Below, piece by piece: positions 3,040-23,593 of a stretch of 32,000 nt of DNA. The notes under the pieces are model-generated. The model saw only the letters and a list, made by a program, of their open reading frames with translations. It had not been told where the DNA came from and made no database searches. Every line of letters begins with the position of its first letter. Position 1 is the stretch's first letter. Source of the stretch: an uncultured Actinomycetota bacterium (GTDB lineage Bacteria > Actinomycetota > Actinomycetes > Mycobacteriales > Mycobacteriaceae). The stretch lies in contig CAVTLW010000026.1 in assembly GCA_963735655.1 (NCBI GenBank), forward strand, positions 130,871 through 162,870. The letters run 5' to 3'. A program made the translations under genes and the position numbers.

Positions 3040-6000
3040 TTGTCGCCGCGATCCGCTAACGTCCAGCTGGTGCACAGGGGGATATACGAGTCGCTGCTGA
3101 CGGATCAGCTCAATCATCAGCTCGAGCAACAGGACCACCTGCGGGCCGAGTACGGCACTGTTGACGAGGCCGAGCAGGCGCTGGCGATCGCGCGCCATCT
3201 CGCGCCGATCATCGAACGTGCAATGCTTGGCGCCGGCACCGCCGAGGACCGCGTAGAACTCGTTCGGCGGATTCTCGAGGTCCTGCCCGACGCTCACGCT
3301 GTCGGCGAGGCGCTGCACCGGGTCGAGCCGGGCAAGATCACCCGGCTCGACGAAGTGGCGAGCTCGAGCGCCCTTGGTAGTGGTCGTCTGCCACGGCCTG
3401 CCACCCCGTTCTCCGACGCCGCGCTCATGACTAACGCGCGCAATGAGCCGACACTGGCCGCCGAATTGCGCGCCGAGCTCGCGAGCGCCGACCACGTCGA
3501 CCTGCTGTGCGCGTTCGTCAAGTGGCAGGGCCTCCGACTGCTCGAGGACCAGCTCAATGAACTGTGTCGGCGGGGCATCCCGCTGCGTGTCATCACAACG
3601 ACGTACCTCGGCGCCACGGATGCTCGTGCTCTTGATGCTCTAGTCAACGAGTTCGGGGCTGAAGTCCGCATCAACTACGAAACCGACCGCACCCGCCTAC
3701 ACGCCAAAGCTTGGCTGCTGCGGCGCAACAGCGGGTTCCACACCGCCTATGTTGGGTCCAGCAATCTATCTCATGCCGCGCTCGTGGATGGACTGGAATG
3801 GAATGTCCGACTGTCAGCAGTGTCGACACCCCACCTCCTGGAGAAGTTTCGGGCTACCTTCGACTCCTATTGGGAGAACAGGGAATTCGAGTTATACAGG
3901 CCATCACAGGACGGCGACCGCTTACGAGCGGCGCTCGAGACCGCATCGGGAAGTCGAGCGCGTGATGGGATCACCGTCACCCTGTCCGGCCTCGAGGTTC
4001 ACCCCAAGCCGTTCCAAGCCGAGATACTCGAAGAACTTGACGCAGAGCGCACGATTCACGACCGTCATCGCAACCTGATCGTCGCGGCGACCGGCACAGG
4101 GAAGACCGTCATCGCAGCCTTGGACTACCGCCGACTCGCCCGCGACAGCCACGGTCGCGACCTCACACTGCTTTTCGTGGCCCACCGCAAGGAGATTCTG
4201 CTGCAAGCGCGGCGGATGTATCAAGAAGTCCTCACTGAGCCCACCTTCGGTGAGCAGCTCGTCGATGGACAGGAACCGGCCAATTGGCGCCATGTGTTCG
4301 CCAGCATCCAATCCCTCTCGCAGGCCAGGCTTTCCGGCATCGCACCGGATCACTTCGACGTTGTGGTGATCGACGAGTTCCACCACGCCGAAGCCGCGTC
4401 TTACCGGCGGTTGCTTGACCACGTGCGTCCAATCGAACTGGTCGGACTTACCGCTACCCCCGAGCGCGCCGACGGTGTCGACGTCCGCGAGTTCTTCGGT
4501 GGCCGGGTCGCCGCCGAACTCCGATTATGGGAAGCACTGGAGCAGAACCTGCTGTGCCCGTTCCACTACTTTGGCATCCACGACGGAACAGATCTTGAAT
4601 CCGTCCAGTGGAGGCGTGGCGGCTACGACCTAGCTTTTCTAAGCAGCGTTTACACGGGCAACGATGCCCGCACCCGCATTGTGCTCAAGGAGCTCAATGA
4701 CAAGGTCGCCGACATTGCGGCCATGCGTGCCTTGGGATTCTGTGTCAGCGTCGAGCACGCGCGGTACATGGCGCAGCGCTTCGTCGAAGCCGGTATCCCT
4801 GCCCGCGCCGTGTCCGCTGAGACTTCCGCGGCCGATCGTCGCGACGCGCTCACCGCGCTGCGCAACCGCGAGATCAACATCCTCTTCGCGGTCGACCTCT
4901 TTAACGAAGGCCTCGACATTCCCGAGGTCGACACCGTGCTATTCCTGCGCCCCACGGAGAGCGCGACCGTATTCCTGCAGCAGTTAGGGCGCGGCCTGCG
5001 GCTTACTAGGGGTAAGACCGTACTGACCGCGCTGGACTTTGTTGGGCACCAACGCCGTGAGTTCCGGTTCGATCAACGTTTTCGAGCGATGAGCGGCATT
5101 GGCGGGAAGGCGCTGCAGCGTCAGGTCGAAGAGGGCTTTCCGTTCCTGCCCTCGGGCAGTCAGATCGTGCTCGACCCAGTCGCGCGGGATCTCGTATTAG
5201 AGAACATCCGACAGCAGGTCGCTCCGAGATGGGCGGTGCTGGTATCCGAAGTGCGTGCACATCCGGACAATCGGCTGGCGTCCTACCTCGATGCGTCCGG
5301 ACGTGGCCTGGAAGACGTCCTAAAGAACAATCGATCGTGGACGTCGCTGTGTCGCGACGCCGGCAAACTCGGTTCGGAACCCGGTCAGCGCGAGGCCGAT
5401 CTCGTCAAACGTGTTCGCGCGGTCGCCCACGTCGACGACCGTCGTCGGTGGACTGTCTACCGCTCGATCCTCGACGGCACCGTTGACATGGACAGCCCCA
5501 TCGAGCGGCGCCTTGCCGAGATGCTGTTCTACTCGTTGAACCCAAATGGCGGCGGATTCAACAGTCCTGCAGCAGGACTCGATGCGCTCCAAGGCGAAGC
5601 GGTCGTCGACGAGCTGCGCGAAGTGATCGACATCGCATTCGACAGTGCCCGCCGCAGCACCTACGAGTTGGGAAGCCTCGTCCCCGAGCTCGCCCAGGTG
5701 CCGCTCGAAGTTCATGCAAGTTATTCCCGAGAGGAAATCCTTGCGGCCCTGGGGTTTGCGTCACTGCGTCGCACGCCTAGCACAATGCGAGAAGGGGTGG
5801 CGTGGTGTGAATCAGTCAACGCCGATGCCTTCTTGATCACGTTGAAGAAGTCCGACCGCGACTACTCGCCGACAACGATGTACCGCGACTTCGCGTTGAG
5901 CCCGAGCCTTTTTCACTGGGAATCCCAATCGACCACGTCTTCGACCGCACCGACCGGGCAGCGATACATCCATCATCGGGAACAGGGTTGCCACATACTG

Positions 6001-6171
6001 CTTTTCGTGCGGCAAGCAAAAACCAACGCACTTGGAACAGCGCCATATGTATTCCTGGGTCCGGCTGACTACGTCTCACACGAAGGGGACCGGCCGATGG
6101 CGATCACCTGGCGGCTGCGTCAGCCGATGCCGACCGAGGTGTACCAGGCGTCAACGGTAGCGGTGGCATAG
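3040..6171 (+). CDS. SauUSI-like type IV (modification-dependent) restriction enzyme: N-terminal PLD nuclease, SF2 helicase/ATPase, C-terminal DUF3427
   Basis: 1043 aa. The HKD motif reads RLHAKAWLL...AYVGSSNLS. Helicase motifs are I AATGTGKT, II DEFHH, III GLTATPER and VI QQLGRGLR. The C-terminus (FHWESQS...ILLFVR...YVFLGPADYVSHEGDRPMAITWRL) matches my memory of DUF3427. The start could be TTG 3040 or GTG 3070. Confidence 0.85.
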   Translation: MSPRSANVQLVHRGIYESLLTDQLNHQLEQQDHLRAEYGTVDEAEQALAIARHLAPIIERAMLGAGTAEDRVELVRRILEVLPDAHAVGEALHRVEPGKITRLDEVASSSALGSGRLPRPATPFSDAALMTNARNEPTLAAELRAELASADHVDLLCAFVKWQGLRLLEDQLNELCRRGIPLRVITTTYLGATDARALDALVNEFGAEVRINYETDRTRLHAKAWLLRRNSGFHTAYVGSSNLSHAALVDGLEWNVRLSAVSTPHLLEKFRATFDSYWENREFELYRPSQDGDRLRAALETASGSRARDGITVTLSGLEVHPKPFQAEILEELDAERTIHDRHRNLIVAATGTGKTVIAALDYRRLARDSHGRDLTLLFVAHRKEILLQARRMYQEVLTEPTFGEQLVDGQEPANWRHVFASIQSLSQARLSGIAPDHFDVVVIDEFHHAEAASYRRLLDHVRPIELVGLTATPERADGVDVREFFGGRVAAELRLWEALEQNLLCPFHYFGIHDGTDLESVQWRRGGYDLAFLSSVYTGNDARTRIVLKELNDKVADIAAMRALGFCVSVEHARYMAQRFVEAGIPARAVSAETSAADRRDALTALRNREINILFAVDLFNEGLDIPEVDTVLFLRPTESATVFLQQLGRGLRLTRGKTVLTALDFVGHQRREFRFDQRFRAMSGIGGKALQRQVEEGFPFLPSGSQIVLDPVARDLVLENIRQQVAPRWAVLVSEVRAHPDNRLASYLDASGRGLEDVLKNNRSWTSLCRDAGKLGSEPGQREADLVKRVRAVAHVDDRRRWTVYRSILDGTVDMDSPIERRLAEMLFYSLNPNGGGFNSPAAGLDALQGEAVVDELREVIDIAFDSARRSTYELGSLVPELAQVPLEVHASYSREEILAALGFASLRRTPSTMREGVAWCESVNADAFLITLKKSDRDYSPTTMYRDFALSPSLFHWESQSTTSSTAPTGQRYIHHREQGCHILLFVRQAKTNALGTAPYVFLGPADYVSHEGDRPMAITWRLRQPMPTEVYQASTVAVA

Positions 6172-6462: not shown

Positions 6463-7944
6463 ATGGAGCATTTGTCGCCGCTTGATGCAACTTTCCTCGA
6501 AGTCGAAGACACCGATCCGCATGTGAGCCTGGCGATCGGCGGCGTGTCGATCATGGAGGGGCCGCCGCCGAGCTACGACGAGTTCGTCTCTTCCTTCAGC
6601 GACCGGGCGTCGTCGATTCCGCGCTGCGGGCAGGTCGTGCGGACTCATCCGCTCGATCTCGGTTCACCCGAATGGGTGGATGACCCGCACTTCGACATCT
6701 CGCGGCACCTGCACCGCCTCGCGCTGCCACATCCTGGCGGCGACGCCGAACTGTTCGAAATGATCGCGACGGTGATGGAGCGCCGGCTCGACCGCGAGCG
6801 CCCGCTATGGGACTGCTTCCTCATCGAGGGGCTGAGCGATGACCGGTGGGCGGTGCTGACCAAGCTCCATCACTGCATTGCCGATGGCATCGCGGCCACG
6901 CAGATGTTGGCGAAGTTCAGCGACGACGACGGCGGCGGTACCTTCGCCACGGACATTGGCGCCGCCAAGGAGCCGGACCGGCAGGGGCTGGGCCTGCCGG
7001 GGTTTAGCCTCAACCCGTTGAACTGGGTGAGTGGGATCGCGCGGAGCGCCTTTAGTGCGGCTGTCGCCGTCGAACACGTCGCGGTGGGTGCGGCCGAACT
7101 GACGGCCAGTGTGCTGAGCCCGGCGCCGGAAACGTCGTTGAACGGACCCGTCACGACGATGCGGCGCTACACAGCGGCGCGGGTGCGACTAGCTGACCTG
7201 CGCGAGGTTGCTTCGGCATTTGACGTGACGCTCAACGACGTGGCGTTGGCGGCGATTACCAATAGTTACCGCGAGGTTTTGCTTGCTCGCGGGGAACAGC
7301 CCGGACATAACTCGCTTCGCACGCTTGTTCCAGTTTCGGTTCGCGGGATGAACCACTTCAACATGACCGACAATCAGGTCTCGGCGCTGCTGCCGCTGTT
7401 GCCCGTCGATGAGGCGGACCCGGAGAAGCAGCTGGAGCTCGTGCACCGCCGGCTCGTCGAGGCCAAAGCCAGCGGACAACGCGAAGGCGGCAGTGCGCTG
7501 CTCTCGGCCGCCAAGAACGTCCCATTTGCGTTCTCGGCGTGGGCCGTTCGCGTGCTCACCCGTCTGCCGCAGCGGGCTGTTGTCGCCTTGGCGACCAACG
7601 TTCCCGGTCCGCGCGCCCAACAGAAACTAATGGGGCGTCGCGTGCTGGAGATCCTGCCGTTCCCCCCGATCGCTCTGCAGGTGCGCACCGGTGTCGCAAT
7701 GGTGAGTTATGCCGATAGTTTTGTTTTCGGCATTACCGGCGACTACGAGACCGCACCCGACATCGAGTCGCTCGCTTCAGGGATCGAGGACGCGGTGGCG
7801 CGGCTGGTCGCGGTAAGCCGCACGCGGCGAGGCAAGCGGGACTCCGGGCGCCGCGGCGGTGAACGGACCACCGGGGGATCGGCTGCTGGGTCCGAAGCTA
7901 GCCACACGACGTCGGCGCCTCAGCGGCGGCCGCTGGCGCGGTGA
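6463..7944 (+). CDS. wax ester synthase/diacylglycerol acyltransferase (WS/DGAT) family protein
   Basis: 493 aa. The N-terminus LSPLDATFLEVED and the catalytic HHCIADG (HHxxxDG) motif are present, along with NDVALAA and a conserved C-terminal half. Confidence 0.9.
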   Translation: MEHLSPLDATFLEVEDTDPHVSLAIGGVSIMEGPPPSYDEFVSSFSDRASSIPRCGQVVRTHPLDLGSPEWVDDPHFDISRHLHRLALPHPGGDAELFEMIATVMERRLDRERPLWDCFLIEGLSDDRWAVLTKLHHCIADGIAATQMLAKFSDDDGGGTFATDIGAAKEPDRQGLGLPGFSLNPLNWVSGIARSAFSAAVAVEHVAVGAAELTASVLSPAPETSLNGPVTTMRRYTAARVRLADLREVASAFDVTLNDVALAAITNSYREVLLARGEQPGHNSLRTLVPVSVRGMNHFNMTDNQVSALLPLLPVDEADPEKQLELVHRRLVEAKASGQREGGSALLSAAKNVPFAFSAWAVRVLTRLPQRAVVALATNVPGPRAQQKLMGRRVLEILPFPPIALQVRTGVAMVSYADSFVFGITGDYETAPDIESLASGIEDAVARLVAVSRTRRGKRDSGRRGGERTTGGSAAGSEASHTTSAPQRRPLAR

Positions 7945-7983
7945 CACCGGGCCTGTTCGGCTGTGCTTTGACGCGACTTAGGG

Positions 7984-9909
7984 CTACCACCACCTCTCCG
8001 GGCCGAGTCGGAGGCACTTCTGCAGGTCGGCGTCGGCGGCGCGCACTGTGGCTTCTTTGACGCGGTAGGCGGCAGCGATGTCAGCGAAGCGGCCGGTTGT
8101 CAGGTTCGCTCGTTGGCACACCATTCGTTCGATTCCGGCCGCGACCGCCGCGGGGCCGTGCGAATTAAGGAAGACGTCCTCGTCGGGCAGCCGCCACAGC
8201 GCGGCGAGGCAGCGCAGCACGCCGGGCAGGCCAAACGTGGGAATCACGCGCCGCCACAGCAGTTCGCCGACAGGGCCGAGCGGGATCCGGGGCTGCGGCG
8301 GCGCGTGCACGGCCTTCAGACCGGGTCCATGGGCCCATCGGCGCAGGTGCGCCGGCTCGAACGGCCGGTCATAGGGCAGGATTTCGTCGATCTGTCCGGT
8401 GCCCCCCGGCGCCTGCCACCGAAGCAGGAACGGGAAGCGACGACCAGCCGCTGTATCGACGCAGCCGCTGGACGCATGGCGTAAGCCCGTCGACGCCGTT
8501 GTCGTGCGGGCGGCGAACGCGACCGGTTCGTCGGTCGGCGAGATCCCCACCGCCCACGCGGCGCCCGACGGACCGTACAGCCGGATCGCCGCCGCCGCGG
8601 GCGAATCCGGCGCACAGATACGCGCCAGCCGCCGGTCGTTGCGGACCACCGCGTCCCACACCTTTCCGATCAGCTTGTCGCCGAGTTTCGGAAGCTTGGC
8701 CGGCAGTGGACTGGGATGGGCGCTGGGATCGGTGCGCACCGGCGACGGGTGCTGCCTCGGTGTCGGCGGTTGCGTGACAACCTGTTTCGCCTTCGCGGCT
8801 GGCTCGAACTTCGGGTCAGCCGGCGGTCTGGTGGGCTCGGGCACGAGCCGGGCGATCCGTGGGGGAACGCAGCTGGCGCACCCGAGCCGCGTCTTCGTCG
8901 CGACCAGTCGCTCATCGGCACCGCAGTGTGGGCAGGCGATGTCGGTGAAACGGGTTAGCGGGATGAGCCAATCGAGCGTCAGTGGGTAACGTCGGTCGCC
9001 GCGGCGGACGTCGACCGGCAACCGCCATACCGGCACCTCGTAGATGTGCAGCCGATAGGGCCGGACCTCGTGGCTCGCCTGGTACTTCTCCCGAGTCTCG
9101 CCGATCCGCCGGGCGCGCTCGTTCCGTACGCTGTCGGCGCGTGCGTCCAGCAGCTCCCGGCGATCGGCAGGTGCTTGCGCGCGCCGACGCTCGATCGTCG
9201 CGAGCGCATCGCGGTAGTAGACCTCGACGCGTTCAAGCTCCGCGTCGCGCGCCTTGTCGATGTCATCACCGAGTTCGGATCGCCGCCGCTCGGCGCACTT
9301 CTGGATAACCCGGTCCGCGAAGCCAATCGCCCCCGTCAGGCCCGTCAGGCCGGCGAGCGACGGCGAACCATCTTTCGGCACTGTCGGCAAGGCGGCGAGC
9401 TTCATACTGACGTGGGTTGGGAGCTGGCGTTGCGACTGCACATCCACCCAGCACTCGGCGCATTCCTGGTAGTGGTCGTCGCTGGACAGCGTGTAGTCGA
9501 CCAGCGCCCCGACACGCAGAATCGCGCGAACCGACCGGGTCGGTGCGCCCGTGGCGTCGATCCGTCCGTGATCGACGGTGAACTGGTCGCGCGCCATCGC
9601 CTGCAGGTGCTCAGCGGGGGGTGGTGGCGCCGCGGCCACCGGAACGGCCATCGCGGCGACGTCACCCACCGCCAGCACCTCGTCCGCGGTGCGACCCAGT
9701 GCGGGATGCCCGGCCGAGAGGAAGGTCGCACCGTCCTCGCGAGCGACATCGGGATCGGCGGTGACCTGCAGCACCTCCGGCAGCTCCAGCATCGTCTGCA
9801 GGGCCGGTGGGAGCATCACCAGCGTCGTATCGCCGCCGAATTCGGTGAGCCCGCCGCTCGCCTCGACATACCGCAGCCAGAAGTCCAGCGCCACATCGGT
9901 GCTCGTCAC
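7984..9909 (-). CDS. 641-aa protein of unknown function, translationally coupled to the SNF2 ATPase
   Basis: GTG 9909-9907 overlaps the SNF2 stop codon (GTGA). An Arg/Glu-rich helical segment spans aa ~205-280. A zinc ribbon CPHC-x14-CASC spans aa 326-347 (nt 8869-8934). A Pro-rich linker spans aa ~350-405. The C-terminal domain is Trp/Arg-rich. I recognise no catalytic motif. Confidence 0.75.
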   Translation of the reverse strand: MTSTDVALDFWLRYVEASGGLTEFGGDTTLVMLPPALQTMLELPEVLQVTADPDVAREDGATFLSAGHPALGRTADEVLAVGDVAAMAVPVAAAPPPPAEHLQAMARDQFTVDHGRIDATGAPTRSVRAILRVGALVDYTLSSDDHYQECAECWVDVQSQRQLPTHVSMKLAALPTVPKDGSPSLAGLTGLTGAIGFADRVIQKCAERRRSELGDDIDKARDAELERVEVYYRDALATIERRRAQAPADRRELLDARADSVRNERARRIGETREKYQASHEVRPYRLHIYEVPVWRLPVDVRRGDRRYPLTLDWLIPLTRFTDIACPHCGADERLVATKTRLGCASCVPPRIARLVPEPTRPPADPKFEPAAKAKQVVTQPPTPRQHPSPVRTDPSAHPSPLPAKLPKLGDKLIGKVWDAVVRNDRRLARICAPDSPAAAAIRLYGPSGAAWAVGISPTDEPVAFAARTTTASTGLRHASSGCVDTAAGRRFPFLLRWQAPGGTGQIDEILPYDRPFEPAHLRRWAHGPGLKAVHAPPQPRIPLGPVGELLWRRVIPTFGLPGVLRCLAALWRLPDEDVFLNSHGPAAVAAGIERMVCQRANLTTGRFADIAAAYRVKEATVRAADADLQKCLRLGPERWW

Positions 9910-11615
9910 GACGGGTCACCCACTAAGAGGTCGACACCTTCCCTGGTTCGGACATAGCTGCGTCTCGCCTCGGCGAGCGCGTTGCCGAGAGCGTCGAGCC
10001 GTCGCTCGAACTCGTCGTCGTCGACGGCATCGACGAACGCATCGAAAACCTCGTTCTCGAAATCGAAGTCGTCGTCGACCCGGCCGAGGATCATGTCAAG
10101 TTCACCGACGACGAGCTCGAACAGGTTGATCTTTGCGTCGAGCACGTGCATGACCTGTTGTTCGATGCTGCCCCGGCAGACCAGGTTGGTCAGCGTCACG
10201 TCGTGTTCCTGCCCAATCCGGTGCAGCCGGCCGAGCCGCTGCTCGATTTGCATCGGGTTCCACGGCAGATCGAAGTTCACCATCACATGGCAGAACTGGA
10301 GGTTGCGACCCTCACCCGCTGACTCGGTCGACAGCAGGATGGGCGTTTCGGCGCCGAACTCCGCGATCGCCGACTCCTTCTCCGCCCGCGTGAGGCTGCC
10401 GTGATACAACGCCGACGACAGCCCGGCACGCTCGACCGCAGCGACGAGCACATCCAGTGTCTGCCGAAACCCGGTGAACACCAACACCTTCTCGTCCCTG
10501 TTGACGTGGCGTCGAAGGAGTTCGACGAGCACACGCACCTTGTCCGGTTCCCGGATGGCCCGGGCCCGTTCCGCGAGGTCGTTCCAGCCGAGCTTCGCCA
10601 GCGTCGGTCCGGCGGCCGCGGGGCTGGAGCCGGCTAGCCGGGTCAGGCCGCGCAGGGCCAACCGGCTAGGTCCCGACCCGGTTGCCGCTGCCCTGACTCG
10701 CCGGACGATGTCGGCGTACAGGCCGGCCTCGTCGATGCCGGGCGTCACCAAGATCGTCTCGGCGAGGCGCGGCGGCAGCATCACGGCAACCTCGCTGCGG
10801 CGATGTCTGACCATCACCTCTCGGGTGCGTGCGCGCAGCTCCTCGGCGTTGTGCGGCCTCGACTCGACCGACGCCGCGCCATGTGTGGCGCGGAACTGGG
10901 CGGGTGTGCCGAGCAGTCCGGGCGCGACGAGGCTGACCAGCTGGTACAGGTCCGACAGCTTGTTCTCCACCGGCGTTGCGGTCAGCATCAACAGATAACG
11001 GGCGCGGAGCCTGCGCGCGAGCTTGCCTGACGCGCTTCGGGGGTTGCGGAGCCGGTGCGCCTCGTCGAAGATCACCAGGTCCCAGTTGGTGTCGGTCAGC
11101 CTACCCAGCAGCGGATCGCGGCGAGCGGCGGCGAGCGACGCGATAGTGACCGGCCGGTCCATCCCAATCTCGCGGGCAGGTGTCGACCCGGATTGGGCGA
11201 TCGTGGTCGGCAACCCGAACTTCCGCTCGAGTTCGTCGCGCCATTGGTCGACAAGTCCCGCCGGAACGATCACCAGCACTTGGTCGGCGAGCCCGCGCAT
11301 GCGTAGCTCGGACAACACCAACCCGGCCTCGATCGTCTTGCCGAGCCCGACCTCGTCGGCCAGGATGCCCCGGCCGCGCATCCGCTGCAGCACGGTCCGC
11401 GCGGCCCGCAGCTGATAGTCGAACGGCTCGAACCGCAACCGCGGTATCGCAAGGAAGGTGTCGAACCCCGGCCGTGCCCAGACGTGGACGGCGTCATCGA
11501 CGATCGCGGACCAATTCGGCTGCGGCCGTGCGCCATTGCGCAGCCGCGCCAGCAACGGTAGGTAGGCGGACAGGTCTGCTGTCGACGTCTCGCCGGCGGC
11601 GATCGTCACGGTCAT
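9906..11615 (-). CDS. compact SNF2/Rad54-family ATPase
   Basis: Motif I is DEVGLGKT, II is FDEAHRLRN (DEAH), III is LTATPVENKLSDLYQL and VI is QIEQRLGRLHRIGQ. The track ORF starts at 11678. I prefer ATG 11615 (MTVTIAAGE) because GGGAGG lies 5 nt upstream. Confidence 0.9.
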   Translation of the reverse strand: MTVTIAAGETSTADLSAYLPLLARLRNGARPQPNWSAIVDDAVHVWARPGFDTFLAIPRLRFEPFDYQLRAARTVLQRMRGRGILADEVGLGKTIEAGLVLSELRMRGLADQVLVIVPAGLVDQWRDELERKFGLPTTIAQSGSTPAREIGMDRPVTIASLAAARRDPLLGRLTDTNWDLVIFDEAHRLRNPRSASGKLARRLRARYLLMLTATPVENKLSDLYQLVSLVAPGLLGTPAQFRATHGAASVESRPHNAEELRARTREVMVRHRRSEVAVMLPPRLAETILVTPGIDEAGLYADIVRRVRAAATGSGPSRLALRGLTRLAGSSPAAAGPTLAKLGWNDLAERARAIREPDKVRVLVELLRRHVNRDEKVLVFTGFRQTLDVLVAAVERAGLSSALYHGSLTRAEKESAIAEFGAETPILLSTESAGEGRNLQFCHVMVNFDLPWNPMQIEQRLGRLHRIGQEHDVTLTNLVCRGSIEQQVMHVLDAKINLFELVVGELDMILGRVDDDFDFENEVFDAFVDAVDDDEFERRLDALGNALAEARRSYVRTREGVDLLVGDPS

Positions 11616-11811
11616 GCGGCCTCCCCACGAGCTTGTGCATGCTTGCTTGCGCCGGACGGTACCGGCGACCACCGACACGACCGACGACCCACGCCGACAT
11701 GTGACTAATGAGGCGGATGTGATTCTCTCCGATGCCCCGCCTGACGAAATCAGATCACCGTCAGGTTATGCGCGCCGGCGTGGCGGACAGCGTCGATGGG
11801 AATCGACTGAT

Positions 11812-12259
11812 CCAGAGTCGCGATGCGATGCCGTCGATCCACGCGCGGTAGTCGTCGGCCGTCGCCAAGCCACCCGCAGCGAAGCTGCCACAGTCGCGGT
11901 GGGGGATTCCATAAAGCGTCAGAACCGGGATGGCGCCGGCAGCTGCGCGTCGCCGGTGTACTTCGCGACCGTAGCTGCTGAAGAGCCCGGGACGATCCAG
12001 TACGCCTGCGGCGTGTTGGCGATGGCGGTCAACTCGGAACTCGGCGGATCGGCATGCTGCGCGGCGCGCATAGCCGCCGAGGTGGGATTGACGTAGAAAG
12101 GCATGCCGGCCAACGGGTTGACCTCACCGGCCAAGCGCACCGCCGGGGCGGACCGACCCGCACCGGGTCGGCAAGAAAACCCATGCCGGCAACGGCCGCA
12201 ACCGTTAGGAAGGGGGCGATCCACTGCGCGACTACACCAGCAGCTGAGAACATCACCAC
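11812..12259 (-). pseudogene. GH6 cellulase (CelA1-like) remnant, frameshifted and truncated at its 3' end
   Basis: Three minus-strand frames read in succession give MFSAAGVVAQWIAPFLTVAAVAGMGFLADPVRVG, then SAPAVRLAGEVNPLAGMPFYVNPTSAA...TPQAYW...AKYTGDAQLPA, then GAIPVLTLYGIPHRDCGSFAAGGLATADDYRAWIDGIASRL. GH6 similarity stops near 11812, leaving about 170 of an expected ~380 aa. Confidence 0.6.
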
Positions 12260-12482: not shown

Positions 12483-12875
12483 CTAAGCGGCGACGACCGC
12501 GACATCATAGGCAGAAAACTGGTCATCCGCGGTGATGATTGTCAGGTCGAGCAGCTGCGCCTGAGCGACGAGGATACGGTCGAACGGATCCCGATGGTGA
12601 TCAGGAAGATCAGCGGTCCTCAGCGTGTGCGGATGGTCGACCGGCAGCGGAGAGGTGCCGGAGCGGCGCATGCGATCAGGGACATATGAGGCCGGCGGTT
12701 CGGGTAACGGGAGTTTGCCCAGCCGATACTTGATCGCGATTTCCCAGGCACTGGCGGCCGAGAAGAGAATGCCGGTGCGGACGTCCTGAACGATTGCACG
12801 GGTTTCGTCACATAACCGGTCAGGGTCGGACTGCATCCATAGCCAAACATGGGTGTCGATGAGGTAACGCTTCAC
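12483..12875 (-). CDS. vapC: PIN-domain toxin (VapC family)
   Basis: 130 aa. YLIDTHVWLW, SAASAWEIAIK and HRDPFDRILVAQA are typical PIN acidic-residue motifs. The start overlaps the upstream antitoxin stop by 4 nt. Confidence 0.9.
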   Translation of the reverse strand: MKRYLIDTHVWLWMQSDPDRLCDETRAIVQDVRTGILFSAASAWEIAIKYRLGKLPLPEPPASYVPDRMRRSGTSPLPVDHPHTLRTADLPDHHRDPFDRILVAQAQLLDLTIITADDQFSAYDVAVVAA

Positions 12876-13117
12876 CGATGGAAGCTTTCGAGAACATCGT
12901 CCGGCAACGGAGCGTCGAAATCGTCGGGCACGGTATACACCCCGTGGTCTGTGCCTAAGCGGCGGGTGTTCTGGGGGTGGAACGGCACAAGCTTCGCAAC
13001 GGGTTCACCCCCGCGGGCAATTTCGACCTCCTGCCCACCGTCGACGAGCCGCAGCAGCTCCGACAGGCGGGTCTTCGCCTCGTGGACACCGACCCTGATC
13101 GCGGTGGACTTAGTCAT
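12872..13117 (-). CDS. Phd/YefM-type antitoxin
   Basis: 81 aa. VGVHEAKTRLSELLRLVDGGQEVEIARGGEPVAKLVP is a Phd/YefM-like fold signature. The stop overlaps the start of the PIN toxin by 4 nt. Confidence 0.85.
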   Translation of the reverse strand: MTKSTAIRVGVHEAKTRLSELLRLVDGGQEVEIARGGEPVAKLVPFHPQNTRRLGTDHGVYTVPDDFDAPLPDDVLESFHR

Positions 13118-13332
13118 GAACTTAGTTTATCCCAGCCTTCGGTGGGAGGCCCCCGCCCACAACTCTCCTTGTATGACCTCGGCTGATCCCCCAGAGCAGC
13201 ACGACCACCTTCTCCACGCCCCGAAACGACGTGGCGACTCAGCTGCGGATGTCCAAAAACGTTACTGCGATCACAATATGGTGGGTATTTCAAAGCCCCC
13301 AATGTGTTTGGCAGCCGGTGGAGGTAGGGAAC

Positions 13333-14727
13333 ATGACCAACGAACAAGACCGGTCCACCGTCGAAGGGCCGCCCAAGCAGCAACCACGCCGCGACCGCAC
13401 GCATTGGCTCTACGTCTCCGTGCTCGTCGCCGTGGTCGCCGGCGTGGTGCTCGGGCTGCTGGACCCGTCGGTCGGCAGGAAACTCGGTGTGCTCGGCAGC
13501 ATGTTCGTCGACCTGATCAAGATGATGATCACCCCGGTGATCTTCTGCACGATCGTGCTGGGAATCGGGTCGCTGCGGAAGGCTGCGACCGTCGGCAAGG
13601 TCGGTGGCCTGGCCCTTGCCTACTTCCTGACGATGTCGACGTTCGCTCTCGCGATCGGCCTCGTGGTGGGCAACCTGCTCAGCCCCGGCACCGGCCTGAA
13701 CGTGTCCAACGATACGTCCGGTAGGGCCCGCGAGCTGGCGGAACAGGCCCACTCAGCAGGCGGACTCGCGGATTTCATCCGGTCGATAATTCCGCACACC
13801 CTGTTCTCGGCGCTGACCGCCGGCAACGTGCTGCAGGCGCTGTTCGTTGCGCTGCTCACCGGGTTCGCTATCCAAGCGCTGCCGCGCAACGCCGCCGAAC
13901 CTGCCCTGCGTGCCGTCGACATCCTGCAGAAAGTGGTGTTCAAGGTGCTGAGCATGATCCTGTGGCTGGCGCCGATAGGAGCGTTCGGTGCGATCGCCAA
14001 CGTCGTCGGACAGACCGGCTGGGCCGGGGTGACCCAGCTGCTGACCCTGATGGTGGGCTTCTACATCACCTGCATCATCTTCGTGTTCGGCGTGCTCGGC
14101 ATTGTGCTGCGGATGGTATCCGGGGTCTCGATCTTCAAACTGGTGCGCTACCTGGCGCGCGAATACTTGCTGATTGTCGCGACCGCGTCGTCGGAGTCCG
14201 CGTTGCCGCGGCTGATCGCCAAAATGGAACACCTCGGCGTCGACCGCAGCACCGTAGGCGTCGTCGTCCCGACCGGGTATTCATTCAACCTCGACGGCAC
14301 CGCGATCTACCTGACGATGGCGTCGCTGTTCATCGCCGATGCGATGGGCAAACCGTTGTCCATCGGCTCGCAGATCGGCCTGCTGGTGTTCATGATCGTC
14401 GCGTCCAAGGGCGCTGCCGGTGTCACTGGCGCCGGGCTGGCGACGCTGGCCGGGGGGCTGCAGGCGCACCGGCCCGAGCTGCTCGACGGTGTCGGCCTGA
14501 TCGTCGGCATCGACCGGTTCATGTCTGAGGCGCGCTCGCTGACGAACTTCTCGGGCAACGCGGTCGCCACCATGGTGGTCGGTTCGTGGACGAAGACCGT
14601 CGACAAGGCACAGGTGGAAGCGGTGCTGCGCGGTAAGGATCCGTTCGACGAGATGTACATGCTCGATGAGGACGACGAACGCCGCCTGGAAGCGCGAGAG
14701 CGCGGGGAGAAGCTGGCGCACGCCTGA
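13333..14727 (+). CDS. dctA: dicarboxylate/amino acid:cation symporter (C4-dicarboxylate transporter DctA-like)
   Basis: A polytopic protein carrying the DAACS signatures ASSESALP, GYSFNLDGT and DRFMSEARSLTNFSGNAV. I prefer ATG 13333 because GGAGG lies upstream; the track ORF starts at 13231. Confidence 0.85.
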   Translation: MTNEQDRSTVEGPPKQQPRRDRTHWLYVSVLVAVVAGVVLGLLDPSVGRKLGVLGSMFVDLIKMMITPVIFCTIVLGIGSLRKAATVGKVGGLALAYFLTMSTFALAIGLVVGNLLSPGTGLNVSNDTSGRARELAEQAHSAGGLADFIRSIIPHTLFSALTAGNVLQALFVALLTGFAIQALPRNAAEPALRAVDILQKVVFKVLSMILWLAPIGAFGAIANVVGQTGWAGVTQLLTLMVGFYITCIIFVFGVLGIVLRMVSGVSIFKLVRYLAREYLLIVATASSESALPRLIAKMEHLGVDRSTVGVVVPTGYSFNLDGTAIYLTMASLFIADAMGKPLSIGSQIGLLVFMIVASKGAAGVTGAGLATLAGGLQAHRPELLDGVGLIVGIDRFMSEARSLTNFSGNAVATMVVGSWTKTVDKAQVEAVLRGKDPFDEMYMLDEDDERRLEARERGEKLAHA

Positions 14728-14860: not shown

Positions 14861-16012
14861 TCAGCCGGACAGCCGCACCGGCAACGCCTTGGGTCCACGA
14901 ATCGACGGGGTGTTGAAGTACGACAAGGTGTCGGCCATAACCCTGTATTCCGGAAAACGGCGGAGCAGTTCTTCGAATGCAACCCTGGCTTCGAGGCGCG
15001 CGAGGTTGGCGCCCATGCAGAAGTGGATACCGCTGCCGAAAGCAATATGTTTTCGGCCCACGCGATGGATGTCGAAACGGTCGGCGTCGTCGAAGATCCG
15101 GGGGTCGCGGTTGGCCGCGGCCAACAGGAGCATCACCTTCTCGCCGGCGCTAATGGTGTGTCCCCGTAGTTCGACATCGGTCGTCGTGGTCCGCGTCAGT
15201 GTCGGGACGGGCCCCTCGAATCTCAGCACCTCTTCGATCGCGTTGGGCAGCAACGAGATGTCTGCGACGATCTCCGCGCGGGCGTCGGGGTGAGCGGCCA
15301 GCACGGTGGCAGCGTTGCCGATCAGATTGGTCGTGGTCTCGTTGCCGGCGATCAGCAGAAGAGCACAGAAACCGAGGATGTCGTCGTCGGTGAGTTTGTG
15401 CTCGTCGATCTCGGCCTGCACAAGGGCGGTGACCAGGTCGTCGCGCGGGCTGGTGCGGCGAGCGGCGATGACACCGCGGAAATAGTCGAAGATGTGGTCG
15501 TAGTTGCGAACCAGCGATTCGTAGTCGCCAGCCGTGGTTGCCATGATCCCGTTGGACCATTCTTTGAACAGGTCTCGATCGTACGGATCGACGCCCAGCA
15601 TTTCGGCGATCACCATGATCGGGAATGGTCCTGTGAACGTCGACACCAGGTCGACTTCGTCTTCGCTGGCTATCGCGTCGAGCAGGGCTCGGGCGGTATG
15701 CCGGATCAGGCTTTCCTGCGCACCTATTCGCTTGGCCGTAAACGCCTTCTGCAGCACTCTCCGCAACTCGGCCTGTCGGGGCGGATCCATCAGGATGATC
15801 ATCGGCTTAATCCCGGAGAATCCATCTAAGGTGATGCCGCTCGCAGAAGAAAAGACCGGCCATTGGCGCAATGCAGCCTCGACATCCTCGAAACGGCTGA
15901 TCGCCCAGAATCGCGGCCGGTCGTTGAGGTGAACCGGACGCTCCTCGCGCAGCGCGGCGTAGACCGGGTGGGGATTTCCAAGGTGCGAACGAGAATAGGG
16001 ATTGAAATTCAT
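14861..16012 (-). CDS. cytochrome P450 monooxygenase
   Basis: 383 aa. The heme loop FGSGIHFCMGANLA, the I-helix AGNETTT and the ExxR motif (EEVLRFE) are all present. Confidence 0.9.
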   Translation of the reverse strand: MNFNPYSRSHLGNPHPVYAALREERPVHLNDRPRFWAISRFEDVEAALRQWPVFSSASGITLDGFSGIKPMIILMDPPRQAELRRVLQKAFTAKRIGAQESLIRHTARALLDAIASEDEVDLVSTFTGPFPIMVIAEMLGVDPYDRDLFKEWSNGIMATTAGDYESLVRNYDHIFDYFRGVIAARRTSPRDDLVTALVQAEIDEHKLTDDDILGFCALLLIAGNETTTNLIGNAATVLAAHPDARAEIVADISLLPNAIEEVLRFEGPVPTLTRTTTTDVELRGHTISAGEKVMLLLAAANRDPRIFDDADRFDIHRVGRKHIAFGSGIHFCMGANLARLEARVAFEELLRRFPEYRVMADTLSYFNTPSIRGPKALPVRLSG

Positions 16013-19395: not shown

Positions 19396-20358
19396 TCAAA
19401 ACCCAAGCGTCAGTTGGTCTCCGAGCGACTCAACCTTGACCTTCGGCGAAACAACAGATTCGTGAAACAGTTCTTCGAGGCGGTTGACGTCGGGCAGTTC
19501 GGCGGCACCGCGCCGGACCAGGGCGCTGTTGCCCGCGCCGCTACCCGGACCAATCCACGAGACGACGCGACCGTAACCATTTTTGAGGGCCTCAATTGCC
19601 CCCGCCCACGTTCCGCCCGTCTCGTGGTCGCTGGCAACCACAATCGTGCAGCGTGAGAGACCGTAGATGATCTTGTTGCGCCCCATCGCATTTCCGACAG
19701 AGAACGGAGCGCTGGGCGTGAACGGCGTCACCAGGCAGATTCGACCGTCAGCCACACCGCGTCGGGTGCCCCGTCGGGTAACAGAGCGCTCCAGGGCGTC
19801 CGCGAGTACGCCAACGACCTGGCCGCCCACCTCGAATGCAGCGTTCATCGCGTCCCCGTCGACGCCTCGTGCCGCTCCGGAAATGACGGGTAGCCCGGAC
19901 TTCACTGCGCCCTCGGCGATCTCGCGTGCGATCTGCGAGCCTTCGGCCGAGATGTCCCGTGAGCCGACCACGCCGACACCGTCAGTATCGAGCAAAGAAG
20001 TGTCGCCCACGCCGTGAAGCACCACCGGCGCCGAGTCGCCAAGCTGGGCTCGTAGCCGCTGGGGGTAGCGCTCACCGGTGCCCGTGATCGTCCAGATGCC
20101 GGAGTGGTCGAGTTTTTCGAGAGCGATCGCAAGGCCGGCAGCCCGGTCGAAAAGCGTGGCAATCCGCTCGGCATCCTCGCTGGGGATCGATAGCTCGGCG
20201 GCGATCTCGCTGGCGGTCATTCCCTGCAGTGTTGATGGTTCAATGCGTCGGCGCAGCGCCCAAAACTCCCGTGCAGGCATAGGTTTCGTCGCCGATTCGA
20301 CCAAGCGGCTGGTCAGCGCGAGCGCAGCCAAGTCCTGTTCGTCGAGAAGCATTTTCAT
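19396..20358 (-). CDS. DprA/Smf-fold protein (PsyrA/RqlI-like putative antitoxin)
   Basis: VVGSRDISAEG...LPVISGAARGVDGDAMNAAFEVGGQVVGVLADAL...GRNKIIY is the DprA Rossmann core. I prefer ATG 20358 (MKMLLDEQ) because it overlaps the RecQ-PRTase stop as ATGA. Confidence 0.85.
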   Translation of the reverse strand: MKMLLDEQDLAALALTSRLVESATKPMPAREFWALRRRIEPSTLQGMTASEIAAELSIPSEDAERIATLFDRAAGLAIALEKLDHSGIWTITGTGERYPQRLRAQLGDSAPVVLHGVGDTSLLDTDGVGVVGSRDISAEGSQIAREIAEGAVKSGLPVISGAARGVDGDAMNAAFEVGGQVVGVLADALERSVTRRGTRRGVADGRICLVTPFTPSAPFSVGNAMGRNKIIYGLSRCTIVVASDHETGGTWAGAIEALKNGYGRVVSWIGPGSGAGNSALVRRGAAELPDVNRLEELFHESVVSPKVKVESLGDQLTLGF

Positions 20359-22402
20359 CCCTTTGCCTTGCCCACAGTAAACGGATAAACCGGGCCGCTG
20401 CCAGCCGACAGCAGCAGGTCGCCCAATACCGTCATTGTCCACCGGGAGTCCACTACGTCGTCGACAAGCAAGATTGGACCGCTGGGCGCCTTCGCCCGGA
20501 ACCCGAACACCTCATCGACATTGCGGAGCTGTTGGGCGCTATTCTCCATCAGCTTCTGGGGAGCGTTGCGTCGCAGCTTGACCAGGCAGTCGGACACTTG
20601 CACGTGAAGTAAATCGGCAAGTCGGTCCGCGAAGTTCTCGACCAGCGTGCGGGTGGGATCGAGACTGGGCACATAGACGACCGTGCCGCTGAATTCGGGC
20701 ATCCATTCGTTGATCAGCGCGGCGGAAGCCTCGACGAGTACGTCGCTCAGCTGTCGGTGGCCGCGTTTTGCCTCAAGCAGCTGATCACCCCATCCCGGGT
20801 CGGTCAGGTAGCACAAGGACCGGCCGGTCTCGAGAAGGTTTCCGATACTGCCGCGTCGGTGTCCCACCCACACCTTACGAGGCTCGATGGTGATCGGGCG
20901 CTGCCTGATAAAGCTCAGGGCTTGCCCGACCAAACTTGGGTCCGTCTTTCGGTCGTATCGATTACCCGTGCAGTTATCGCACCGGCCGCACGAGTCGACT
21001 GCGTTGTCGTCGAGGACATTTCGCAGGAATGCCATGCGGCATGCTGACGTGGTCGCGTAATCGCGCATGGCCTGGTGCTCCGCCAGTCGAGCATTCCTTA
21101 CACGCTCGATCCGCGCAGTGTCGAAGCTCCACGGGCGCAGAGTGCGACGGTATTTTGACCGCTCCTTTTCGACCGCACCCTCGACCTCGAGCACTTTGAG
21201 TAGACCTGTGATCCGGGAGGTGGGCATGTTGACGTTCACCTCGATGTCGCGCTGTCCGACCCAATCGCCTTCGGCCTCGAGATACTCGACGACCTGCTCG
21301 GCATGCCATTGGATAGGAAGGCCGTGATCGAGAAAGTACTGCCAGATGTCCTCGTCGTGTTCACTCCACAGCAAGACCACTTCTGCATGGTCGACGGCGC
21401 GGCCCGCGCGGCCCACTTGCTGGTAGTACGCGACGGGAGAGTCGGGTGACTGAAAGTGGATCACGAAGGCGAGATCGGGCTTGTCGAACCCCATACCCAG
21501 CGCCGACGTTGCGGCGACGACCTTCAGATCATTCGACTTGAGTTGCCTCTCGATCTCCATTCGTCGTTCTGGATCTGTCTCGCCCGAATACGCGGCCGCC
21601 GGAATTCCCTTGGCGTTCAACCAGTCCGCAACTCGTGCGGTGTCTGCGACAGTCAGGCAGTAGACGATGCCCGACCCCGGCATTCGCGGGATCCGCTGAG
21701 CAAGCCACGCGAGCCGCTCGACAATGGTGGGGATTCGATCGAAGACAGCGCCAAGCTTTCGCGGTCGAGGCTGCCGCGGCTCAGCTTGAGGTCGGCGCCC
21801 AGCTGGCGGCGAATGTCTTCGACCACGCGGTCGTTTGCTGTTGCCGTTGTGCACAGCACGGGAACTCCTGGCGGCATGAACTCGAGCACGCGGACGAGAC
21901 GGCGGTAGTCCGGGCGAAAGTCGTGGCCCCAGTCGCTGATGCAGTGTGCCTCGTCGATGACGAGAAGGCCCGCACTGCGACTGAGCGGCCCGAGCAACCT
22001 GTCCCTGAAGTCGAGGTTGTTGAATCGCTCGGGGGACATCAGCAGGAGATCGACGCTCCGCGGCGAAGGTTGCGCTCGATCTCCTCCCACTCTCGCGTGT
22101 TGCTGCTGTTGATCGTTACTGCGTTTAGTTGCCGGCCGAGTCGCCGCTTCGATCTGATCGCGCATGAGCGCCAACAGCGGCGACACGATGATCGTGGTGC
22201 CTGCGCCCCTATCCCGCAGCAAGCGGGTGGCGACGAAGTAGACGGCGCTCTTTCCCCAGCCGGTGCGTTGTACGACTAGAAGGCGGCTGCGCTGTTCCAC
22301 GACGGCCTCGATGGCTTGCAACTGGCCGTCGCGGAATTCCGCTGAAGGTCCCAGTGCCCGCCGCAGGACCGCCAGCGCAGCGTCCTCGAAACCCATCGTC
22401 AA
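20355..22402 (-). pseudogene. RecQ-family helicase fused to a C-terminal ComF-like phosphoribosyltransferase (PsyrT/RqlH-like), frameshifted
   Basis: The N-terminal ORF 21653..22402 carries FRDGQLQAIEAV, QRTGWGKSAVYF, SPLLALMRDQ and VIDEAHCISDWGHDFRPDY. ORF 20355..21854 carries GIVYCLTV, motif VI YYQQVGRAGR and the Zn motif CRMAFL...CGRCDNC. The C-terminal GPILLVDDVVDSRWTM is a PRPP-binding loop. The two ORFs are in different frames (shift near 21746). An internal segment at about 22058-22143 is also out of frame. Confidence 0.8.
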
Positions 22403-22510
22403 GTCGTGAGCCCCTTCTGAGCGAACGTGATCAGGAGGGGAGCGTAGCGGGCCAGGGTGACAAGCGGTTGGCTGCTTGAGCTCATTTCGGGCGCCGGCGG
22501 CTGACCTGCA

Positions 22511-23593
22511 TCACGCCCACCAGGGCGGAAAACCGATGTCCAGCCGCTCGCTTTGCTTGTATCCCGACCAGGTCGGCACGCCCGGCGGTTGCCCACGATA
22601 AATCCCTCGGGCTGCCGCTACGACACGGTCATGCTGTGTAGGCCATTGCAGCTCGGAAGCGATCTCCTCCAGTACGTCACGCTTCCGCTCGAGCACACGG
22701 TTGACGATCTTCACTGACGGTAATGCCCCGCCCTTGTCGCCGTTGCAGCGCGCACAGGACAGCACCAGGTTCGACAGCCCGTCGATCCCAACTAACGACC
22801 ACGGCAACACATGGTCGAGTGGGTTGTTCGTTGGCAGATGCGTTCCGCAGTAGAAGCAGTGCGGGCCGAACGCTTCTTTGAATGGCTGACGGAGGGCAGC
22901 GAGTGTAGTGCGTTCCCGGCCGAACAGATGGCCCGCAATGTCGGGCACATCGGCGTCGAGAAACTTGTTCATCCGCCGGACATCATCGACCCACATGATC
23001 TCTAGAGCAGGCTTCAACAGGCCCGCTAGCCTCGCCAGGCCATGGGCGACACCGGGTTTCAGCACTATTGCGTCTCCGTGGGCACGAAGCGTCGACCGCG
23101 AGACATTCTCGCCCAGAAACGAGTCGTCGTACAGAAACGGATCGCTAACCGACGACCCGGGCAGCTTCTGCAGGCGGGGCAAGGGTTGCTTGGCCAACGC
23201 GATCACGATCCCATTGATCGCCTTCTGATATGCGTCCGGCCTTCGCATGATCGCCACCTCGAGCGACAGACCACGACCGCCTGCTCCGGTTGCTGCGCGA
23301 AGTTCTTTGGTGGCGGCGATAATTCGTGATTTCGATCCGGTACGGCGTTGGGCCAAGTCATGCCCCTCGAACGGGCGGACCTGTTGCCAGTAGATCGCCA
23401 GCACCCGGTGCGCCAATTCGGGAATTGCGACCCGCAACGGGTCGCCTGACCGCTCTGGCAGGTTTTCGATGCAGTGCTCGATCACCGCCATCAACAGGGC
23501 GAGTTTGTAGGTCGCATCACGCTGACCTGTCTCGAGGATCGCGACCACGCGTTGTCCCAGGAGCAGCGGATCGGCAGAGTTACCGTCCACCAT
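22511..23593 (-). CDS. HNH endonuclease with a ~240-aa N-terminal domain of unknown function
   Basis: 360 aa. The HNH motif reads CFYCGTHLPTNNPLDHVLPWSLVGIDGLSNLVLSCARCNGDKG. The N-terminus contains the helix ATYKLALLMAVIEHC. The gene is co-directional with the RecQ-PRTase gene and about 110 bp upstream of it. Confidence 0.85.
   Translation of the reverse strand: MVDGNSADPLLLGQRVVAILETGQRDATYKLALLMAVIEHCIENLPERSGDPLRVAIPELAHRVLAIYWQQVRPFEGHDLAQRRTGSKSRIIAATKELRAATGAGGRGLSLEVAIMRRPDAYQKAINGIVIALAKQPLPRLQKLPGSSVSDPFLYDDSFLGENVSRSTLRAHGDAIVLKPGVAHGLARLAGLLKPALEIMWVDDVRRMNKFLDADVPDIAGHLFGRERTTLAALRQPFKEAFGPHCFYCGTHLPTNNPLDHVLPWSLVGIDGLSNLVLSCARCNGDKGGALPSVKIVNRVLERKRDVLEEIASELQWPTQHDRVVAAARGIYRGQPPGVPTWSGYKQSERLDIGFPPWWA

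Follow-up and report, generated by a model that had tools for sequence, protein, structure and literature searches.

What is the function of a compact Swi2/Snf2 ATPase whose stop codon overlaps the start of a second gene, and what is the product of this second gene, for which scans of Pfam, NCBIfam and PADLOC returned no match? Such a pair lies on the minus strand at positions 7984..11615 of a DNA stretch from an uncultured Actinomycetota bacterium of the family Mycobacteriaceae (GenBank assembly GCA_963735655.1, contig CAVTLW010000026.1, positions 130,871 to 162,870). We call this stretch of 32,000 nucleotides (nt) the window. A previous sequence-only reading of the window had proposed a two-gene module in a defense-type neighborhood that could not be fitted to known systems. 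In this last point our analyses lead to a different view. The N-terminal ~320 residues of the second protein, here termed the partner, appear to correspond to the Spacer and C-terminal domain of RapA, encoded in a separate gene, and YqhH/YqhG profile and blastp matches mark the pair as the probable actinobacterial counterpart of Bacillales yqhH-yqhG. RapA is the type of motor that frees stuck RNA polymerase. With regard to structural and evolutionary identity, we thus consider it highly probable that the two proteins are subunits of a split Swi2/Snf2 enzyme of the RapA/YqhH-YqhG type.

Two genes inherited as one unit

The list of open reading frames (ORFs) of the window holds the SNF2 gene in an ORF at 9906..11678 (−), 590 residues long when counted from GTG, and the partner in an ORF of 641 residues, likewise from GTG, at 7984..9909 (−) directly downstream. 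The open frame of the SNF2 gene extends upstream of an ATG at 11615 to the GTG at 11678. We regard ATG 11615 as the likelier start, because a Shine-Dalgarno-like GGGGAGG (11620..11626, (−)), read from the sequence, is located 4 nt upstream and because distant homologs align only from residue ~19–36 of the long ORF. The gene would then span 9906..11615 (−) and encode a compact ATPase of the YqhH type with 569 residues. At the junction, cGTGAcg, the SNF2 stop codon TGA (9908-9906) and the partner start GTG (9909-9907) overlap by 4 nt, and this GTGA overlap (9906..9909, (−)) points to translational coupling.

The SNF2 translation carries the motifs GLGKT, DEAH, LTATPVENKLSDLYQL and QRLGRLHRIGQ, and the Swi2/Snf2 helicase core was recognized by Pfam (SNF2-rel_dom, 8e-37; Helicase_C, 1e-23), in agreement with an ATPase core that has helicase motifs I–VI. 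Only ~60 residues precede the motor, and a Tudor-like N-domain is absent. After motif VI, ~94 residues follow, and a short acidic, helical tail closes the protein. In the NCBIfam scan, all equivalog scores remained under the curated cutoffs. The G+C content of the pair is 66–70% versus 61–66% in its flanks. The overlap, the motifs, the length of the ATPase and a CPHC-x14-CASC zinc ribbon in the partner (C326, C329, C344, C347) had all been described in the sequence-only reading and are indeed present.

Homologs of the partner are numerous. One search of a collection of 5.8 billion proteins returned 411, M. kansasii and Mycolicibacterium doricum among their sources, and in a representative library the family comprised 703 clusters at 50% identity. 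Gene order was followed in one genome per species with two peptide patterns, which returned 41 loci; owing to the use of just two patterns, this census of loci is a lower bound. The loci stem from Mycobacterium (many metagenome-assembled genomes (MAGs) from soil; M. ostraviense, M. innocens, M. gastri), Pseudonocardiales and Streptosporangiales. The co-occurrence of both genes, a check that the sequence-only reading had suggested, was complete: the SNF2 gene lies directly upstream of the partner in every one of the 39 loci with DNA on that side. The 4-nt overlap, as GTGA or ATGA, was retained in 27 of 33 evaluable loci, with spacings of −11 to +7 nt in the others. When the ORFs flanking the pair in the 41 loci were clustered, SNF2 and partner were the sole widely shared families, and hence there is no conserved third gene. 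Between orders, identity amounts to 62–66% for SNF2 versus 42–44% for the partner. The pair is inherited as a unit that is tightly coupled at its start/stop junction, in line with the co-conserved module proposed earlier, and the conserved overlap suggests that both chains are made together and in matched amounts.

Two further observations concern individual loci. SNF2 and/or partner frames are broken in the MAG loci L013, L023, L027, L034 and L035, mostly from one long-read MAG project ('MFD'), and the breaks may reflect either pseudogenes or frameshifts from assembly. Directly downstream of the partner, Mycobacterium sp. HUMS_1102779 encodes another, much larger SNF2 protein of 1102 residues, with its SNF2 domain at residues 645-926 (L020:11981-15289, (+)).

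Architecture of the partner

The AlphaFold2 model of the partner, with a mean predicted local distance difference test (pLDDT) score of 75.8, bears out the layout read earlier from the sequence, i.e., a helical stretch, a zinc ribbon, a Pro-rich linker and a C-terminal domain. In this model ~80 residues at the N-terminus are poorly predicted. Residues 83–190 form a beta-rich alpha+beta region, residues 191–275 an 85-residue helical hairpin, and residues 279–315 a beta hairpin that leads into the zinc ribbon. This N-terminal module (residues 1–320; 8950..9909, (−)) is the part that Foldseek, hhalign and hmmsearch relate to the RapA Spacer and C-terminal domain and also to YqhG; it starts with an N-terminal [VI]T-D-VA-RED-A...HP...L..GD motif region. 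Family members matched zinc-ribbon families of Pfam weakly, and all four Cys of the ribbon, C326-x2-C329-x14-C344-x2-C347 (8869..8934, (−)), are invariant in 48 diverse members. With these invariant Cys, 411 homologs and 703 clusters, the partner is far beyond a chance reading frame.

The Pro-rich linker (residues ~350–400; 8710..8862, (−)) is predicted to be disordered, with pLDDT <50 for residues 352–398, and varies in length and sequence across the alignment. It leads to a compact, lineage-specific C-terminal domain (residues 403–641; 7987..8703, (−)). Modelled alone, this domain reached a pLDDT of 88.4 and a predicted template modelling (TM) score of 0.88; its first half is NTF2-like and its second half a six-helix bundle. 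NTF2-like folds match it weakly (Foldseek E~0.1, target-normalized TM ~0.5). Short forms of ~350 residues, which end just past the zinc ribbon and lack the C-terminal domain, are common in the family. From this it follows that the C-terminal domain is optional, and that the N-terminal module together with the zinc ribbon makes up the family core. Full-length members share the ending ...LQ..L.L....W-COOH; the last residue, W641 (7987-7989), is an invariant Trp in 23/23 aligned full-length members of alignment A1.

In the family, D83 and E149 are conserved and H114, E152 and D156 nearly invariant, and an active nuclease motif is not recognizable in the partner. A sequence search of the PDB with the hidden Markov model (HMM) of the family yielded coiled-coil noise only (SPX domain). 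For the last ~40 residues, a helix-turn-helix (HTH) of the sigma-70 region 4 type had been tentatively suggested. The partner has no Sigma70_r4 or HTH match in Pfam, neither is among the 25 commonest Pfam families listed for the 48 relatives, and the model of residues 400–641 has neither a sigma factor nor an HTH among its top 50 Foldseek matches in the PDB. A small helical motif could escape these searches, which lend the idea no Pfam or fold support.

Similarity to RapA and YqhG

Which known protein does the family core resemble? A Foldseek comparison of the full partner model with the PDB, also suggested in the sequence-only reading, placed RapA at ranks 1 and 2 (8so8, E=1e-3, probability 1.0, 254 columns; 6bog_A, E=2e-3). 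The remaining matches listed had E ~0.05 or worse and were mostly NTF2-like folds on the C-terminal domain. With hhalign, partner residues 10–91 align to RapA 718–803, both sharing the motif [VI]T.D..VA.RED.A.F...HP......D..L..GD, and a second profile comparison extends to partner residue 94. Against the RapA_C alignment (PF12137), hhalign gave E=3.4e-3, and E=1.6e-4 when cyanobacterial and alphaproteobacterial partners were added. In hmmsearch with filters off, the partner profile from position 8 to 239 is collinear with RapA 717–951, and 64 of 121 RapA_C sequences outscored every one of ~2,500 decoys (best E, 2e-6).

Collinearity also includes the ATPase. SNF2 residues 359–475 align to RapA 490–608, which leaves 94 SNF2 residues, and partner residue 8 aligns to RapA 717; the gene boundary hence falls at the motor-to-Spacer transition of RapA. 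The motor cores of SNF2 and E. coli RapA are 35–41% identical in two fragments (E~1e-21). The blastp match starts at RapA residue 157, and residue 82 of the ORF (~61 from ATG) corresponds to RapA profile position 151. Together, the two genes reproduce the domain order of RapA apart from its N-domain.

E. coli RapA (HepA; PDB 6BOG, 8SO8) and the pair thus have in common the motor, a Spacer-like region and an alpha+beta domain with a long helical hairpin. RapA, however, is one chain of 968 residues with a tandem Tudor-like N-domain, whereas the pair consists of two chains, lacks the N-domain and has gained the zinc ribbon and the C-terminal domain. As a single protein, SNF2 falls outside the RapA type: its NCBIfam RapA (PRK04914) score is 190 bits versus a cutoff of 576, the Tudor-like N-domain (RapA residues 1–107) is missing, and Spacer and RapA_C are not present in cis, the equivalent module being supplied in trans by the next gene.

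Compact SNF2 genes of this kind are not confined to Actinomycetota. When plasmids were searched by tblastn for relatives of the SNF2 protein, genes for ~570 residues emerged that align over their full length, with identities of 40–41% for plasmids of Nostoc (41%), Calothrix and Oscillatoria and ~37–38% for ~20 haloarchaeal plasmids. Also recovered were the SNF2 protein of the alphaproteobacterium Rhodovastum, with 42% identity, and Brevibacillus YqhH, with 36.5% over 520 of 569 residues (E=4e-116). We inspected seven loci (two cyanobacterial, Rhodovastum, Brevibacillus and three haloarchaeal), and in all seven a gene for 346–401 residues directly follows SNF2 on the same strand.

How closely these neighbors resemble the partner differs. 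The cyanobacterial plasmid pairs (Nostoc NZ_CP151105, Oscillatoria NC_019731), whose ATPases are among the closest found, are annotated just as 'SNF2-related protein' and 'hypothetical protein'; their partners (346 residues) match the N-terminal module with E=8e-13 and 7e-11 but have lost the zinc ribbon and have no C-terminal domain. The Rhodovastum partner matches the actinobacterial profile with E=1.9e-4 and keeps the C-terminal CxxC...CxxC cluster. Haloarchaeal partners likewise end in a CxxC...CxxC cluster, with G-C-x-x-C as in the window. Homology of these to the actinobacterial profile was not significant in HMMER (E~0.4), the likeness being one of architecture and of the RLGCxxC ending.

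The Brevibacillus neighbor belongs to the YqhG family (PF11079, E=1e-73, 248 bits), and its SNF2 gene adjoins gcvT-PA-PB. Judging from the gene names, we take this arrangement to be that of yqhH-yqhG in B. subtilis. There, yqhH adjoins yqhG (PMC6123443). B. subtilis YqhH has been called HepA/RapA and is listed among poorly characterized translocases that interact with RNA polymerase (PMC7385302), while yqhG continues to be listed without a known function (PMC3487849). In our NCBIfam scans, SNF2 and Brevibacillus YqhH gave a near-identical ranking of top matches. For the partner, hhalign of the actinobacterial profile against the YqhG alignment reached a probability of 48% (E=1.8e-4, ~255 columns), and 87.5% (E=3.6e-6, 254 columns) with cyanobacterial and alphaproteobacterial partners included. 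In the reciprocal HMM search from the YqhG side, 12 of 48 partners scored above all decoys. The homology of partner and YqhG is detected at the profile level only. YqhG and RapA_C compared directly gave no significant hhalign match (E=0.2), which makes the partner family the bridge between them.

Like the pair, the Bacillales proteins combine an SNF2 ATPase of ~560–570 residues without Tudor N-domain with a product of the next gene on the same strand, and the whole length of YqhG aligns with partner residues 1–286. In contrast to the partner, YqhG is devoid of the zinc ribbon, the Pro-rich linker and the NTF2-like/helical domain. A gap of 71 nt separates the Brevibacillus genes, whereas those of the pair overlap, and the Bacillales pair occupies a fixed chromosomal site by gcvT-PA-PB, whereas the flanks of the actinobacterial pair vary.

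The plasmid loci have particular surroundings. On a mobilizable Nostoc plasmid (L043:3371-7614), a small ORF, a PIN toxin, SNF2, the partner and a RelE/ParE toxin with antitoxin follow each other. The repeated adjacency to toxin–antitoxin genes may reflect the abundance of the latter. On three haloarchaeal plasmids (L045, L046, L047), SNF2 and a partner of ~385–397 residues ending in CxxC-x17-CxxC overlap by 8 nt and adjoin genes for a DUF1156 methyltransferase and a DUF499 or AAA ATPase. From these neighbors, the Hma/BR-type helicase appears to be split in haloarchaea.

Discussion

The pair is, in our view, a variant of the RapA-like Snf2 family, and we do not regard it as a system of a new kind. 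Within the literature that could be searched, the novelty is twofold: the partner, together with YqhG, is assigned as the C-terminal half of RapA in a subunit of its own, and zinc ribbon, linker and NTF2-like/helical domain are recognized as additions of the actinobacterial lineage.

We propose that the split of the enzyme lies in the linker that joins the motor to the C-terminal accessory domains. The first gene would encode the ATP-driven double-strand DNA translocase core in its compact YqhH form. [quoted passage not shown] The N-terminal module of the partner might dock on the motor as in RapA and so form a heterodimer; partner residues 1–82 are modelled with low confidence, which would suit a surface that becomes folded on contact with the other subunit. 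The zinc ribbon and the tethered C-terminal domain could replace the missing N-domain as a targeting or regulatory part. ATP would be used to remodel or displace a protein–DNA complex, with stalled or post-termination RNA polymerase as the foremost candidate. Overall, a split RapA/HepA-type enzyme that remodels a protein–DNA complex is the best explanation we can offer, and a reasonably probable one. RNA polymerase as the target, suggested by analogy with RapA, is a more tentative proposal. In RapA, the N-domain contributes to RNA polymerase binding and autoinhibition. The Spacer contacts the zinc-binding domain of the RNA polymerase beta' subunit, and deletion of this domain nearly abolishes activation of the RapA ATPase (PMC8501970).

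Several observations weigh against this interpretation. The Foldseek TM-scores for RapA are low (0.12–0.15), although this can be explained by a match that covers part of a multi-domain model. The hhalign probabilities against RapA_C were 9–50%, and with composition-matched shuffles of the partner as a stricter control, 2 of 20 RapA_C sequences ranked above the first decoy. In standard HMMER, PF12137 was absent for the partner and, at E<=10, also for 48 relatives; PF11079 was absent from the partner at E<=1 and from the top families listed for the 48 relatives at E<=10, and the partner has no gathering-threshold match to this family, in contrast to Brevibacillus YqhG. Taken alone, the sequence link to RapA_C is marginal, and the assignment hence rests on sequence, fold match and collinearity together. 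Since the RapA N-domain is absent, an association with RNA polymerase is an extrapolation. Finally, the pair occurs patchily and with unrelated flanks across genomes, unlike a housekeeping factor. The sequence-only reading had expected a RapA-like protein to be such a factor at a conserved core locus; the pair does look RapA-like, but its locus is neither core nor syntenic.

This distribution leads to the main rival explanation, to which we assign a low but real probability: the pair could be a stand-alone anti-phage or anti-plasmid module, in which SNF2 translocates on invading DNA and the partner, with its zinc ribbon and C-terminal domain, detects the invader or brings in an effector. It would then be a minimal relative of the BrxHII, DrmD and BR/Hma helicases, its partner having a degenerate restriction endonuclease (REase)-like domain. 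RapA, BrxHII of BREX type 3 and the BR/Hma helicases share an architecture of Tudor, SNF2, inactive REase and alpha+beta domains (PMC12839542); a term search of the text of this paper found no 'split', zinc ribbon or YqhG. The best PADLOC matches of our SNF2 core are indeed to BrxHI|BrxHII (244 bits), DrmD (230) and HmaA (198), helicases of these systems score best in NCBIfam as well, and the haloarchaeal loci, of the same split design with a partner that ends in a putative zinc ribbon, sit in an Hma/BR-type setting (PMC12839542). Patchiness, an identity to one other locus that ends a few bases from the pair, and toxin–antitoxin genes, a putative IS630 fragment and a destroyed glycoside hydrolase gene at the borders likewise favor a defense module, as does the presence in the window of a type IV REase and of a gene cluster with DprA-like, RecQ-like, HNH and kinase members.

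The PADLOC matches, however, cover the motor only, and NCBIfam scores for DrmD (225–234 bits versus cutoffs of 610–950) and ZorD (99 versus 1500) stay far below the family limits. Companion genes of DISARM (DrmABC and a methylase), BREX type 3 (PglZ, BrxC, PglX) or Zorya (ZorAB) were found neither in the window ORFs nor among the families shared by the 41 loci. The same holds for the DUF1156 methyltransferase and DUF499 ATPase of the BR/Hma loci, which were absent from the window ORFs scanned, were not shared across the 41 loci, and were not among the 25 commonest families listed in each of two flanking-ORF scans. The mycobacterial HelZ/SWIM pair is no better model, as the conserved Cys cluster of the partner is CxxC-x14-CxxC only, the SWIM motif CxCxnCxH does not occur and no SWIM match appeared in Pfam for the partner or among the families listed for its relatives. 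In setting aside DISARM, Zorya and HelZ/SWIM, the sequence-only reading was thus correct. Moreover, the 144 non-redundant flanking ORFs of the 41 loci are mostly metabolic or regulatory (TetR, MMPL, acyl-CoA ligases, oxidoreductases), and there is no defense-island enrichment among them, with each PADLOC family matching 1–2 ORFs. The window itself is rich in defense-type genes and looks like an accessory setting, in line with the sequence-only reading. The partner has no PADLOC match and no recognizable nuclease motif, partner searches found no relatives in collections of phage genomes, viral contigs and plasmids, and the Bacillales yqhH-yqhG genes are a chromosomal pair beside the gcv operon.

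Alternatively, and with still lower probability, the pair might be a translocase for DNA repair or for replication–transcription conflicts whose direct substrates are DNA lesions or structures, without RNA polymerase as an intermediary. A B. thuringiensis yqhH knockout was more sensitive to ultraviolet light, and purified YqhH had ATPase and unwinding activity (PMC10054049), but this is a single study in a distant organism, and our 41 loci reveal no linkage to repair genes. [quoted passage not shown] A canonical D...(D/E)xK motif, however, does not arise from these acidic residues, and the position opposite D83 in the YqhG alignment is non-acidic. A neutral or decaying helicase remnant of a BR/Hma-like or BREX-like system that has lost its methyltransferase and ATPase, as the multi-gene setting of the haloarchaeal pairs and the broken frames in some MAG loci might indicate, is very improbable given intact frames in most loci, 42–66% identity between orders, invariant Cys and motif residues, the maintained overlap, and broken copies that come mostly from one sequencing project and may be assembly errors.

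If the split RapA-type enzyme that we favor is correct, ~700 unannotated protein clusters of soil Actinomycetota, including the M. kansasii complex, would be linked to a known enzyme type, and Bacillus YqhG is suggested to be the C-terminal half that the RapA-like ATPase YqhH lacks. Two chains that form one enzyme would mean that the accessory module is genetically separable from the Snf2 motor, and they would offer a natural system to probe the roles of the RapA Spacer and C-terminal domain, as well as a clue to the reuse of RapA-like helicases in BREX-related defense. We know of no well-defined RapA in mycobacteria; a RapA-like accessory factor may therefore bear on transcription recycling and stress tolerance in some of these species. 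One may speculate further that split RapA-like Snf2 enzymes are a widespread class, so far undescribed to the extent of our searches, in Bacillales, cyanobacterial plasmids, an alphaproteobacterial plasmid, haloarchaeal BR/Hma-type loci and Actinomycetota. In this broader scenario, which we consider rather unlikely, the added zinc ribbon and tethered domain would retarget the motor, for instance to RNA polymerase in a particular state or to DNA of foreign origin, and the pair would be a horizontally mobile stand-alone remodeler, possibly with a defense or anti-plasmid role.

Genomic surroundings

The borders of the pair were examined by comparison with the other loci. Nucleotide homology is restricted to 7981-11823 of the window, with up to 96.5% identity, and the flanks outside are unrelated; the 96.5% identity to L001 ends a few bases past the pair. 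Downstream, the limit of homology is the partner stop codon. Upstream, the limits scatter over ~150 nt within the 3'-terminal part of a vapC (PIN) gene, of which the window has kept a remnant of ~25 codons (11749..11823, (−)) at the upstream limit of the shared block. We read this pattern as repeated rearrangement or transfer that preserved the operon and its promoter region. Because the upstream breakpoints scatter and the sequence shared there belongs to the vapC 3' end, 7981-11823 does not qualify as a discrete mobile element with defined ends. vapC is complete (147 residues, TIGR00028, E=5e-34) in L002, L003, L005, L008, L020, L021 and L034 and truncated elsewhere. A PIN toxin as a conserved third component was discarded, as vapC is often truncated and the mycobacterial VapC is unrelated to the PIN protein on the Nostoc plasmid (blastp E=0.15). 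Across the M. kansasii complex, synteny of the locus is kept, and genes for an amidohydrolase, a TetR-thioesterase and a Phd antitoxin are found close by.

Next to the vapC remnant lies the remnant of a glycoside hydrolase family 6 (GH6) N-terminus of ~60 residues (11919-12224, (−)), which matches M. tuberculosis Cel6 (1UOZ, E=2.4e-17). At this junction (11749-12224, (−)), a rearrangement destroyed both genes beside the SNF2 promoter region. An IS630-like fragment that encodes ...DTTTLFAALNVLTGVVIGR... is shared by L001-L008, L021 and L027, where it is located ~60-180 nt past the partner stop, and is absent in the window. From its motif, DTTTLFAALNVLTGVVIGR looks like the middle of an IS630-family transposase.

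The neighbors in the window agree with those named in the sequence-only reading, with one addition. A gene for a type IV methyl-directed REase (3040-6171, (+)) encodes 1043 residues with PLD, ResIII, Helicase_C and DUF3427 domains; it looks intact, with a full-length PADLOC match to mREase_IV (1096 bits). Between this gene and the pair lies a WS/DGAT gene (6463-7944), which had been omitted before. On the other side, the truncated GH6 gene is followed by a PIN/Phd pair (12483-13117). A run of genes at 19396-25249 (−) may be a second defense-type cluster of the window. It includes a DprA-like/SLOG gene (19396-20442), the C-terminal part of a RecQ-like helicase (20355-21854), possibly split from the ORF at 21653-22402, and is completed by an HNH endonuclease (22511-23593) and a Ser/Thr kinase (23663-25249). 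Ordinary metabolic genes are also present: two cytochrome P450 genes lie at 844-2118 (−) and 14861-16012 (−), and a sodium:dicarboxylate symporter gene (13231-14727) is found between the pair and the second of these.

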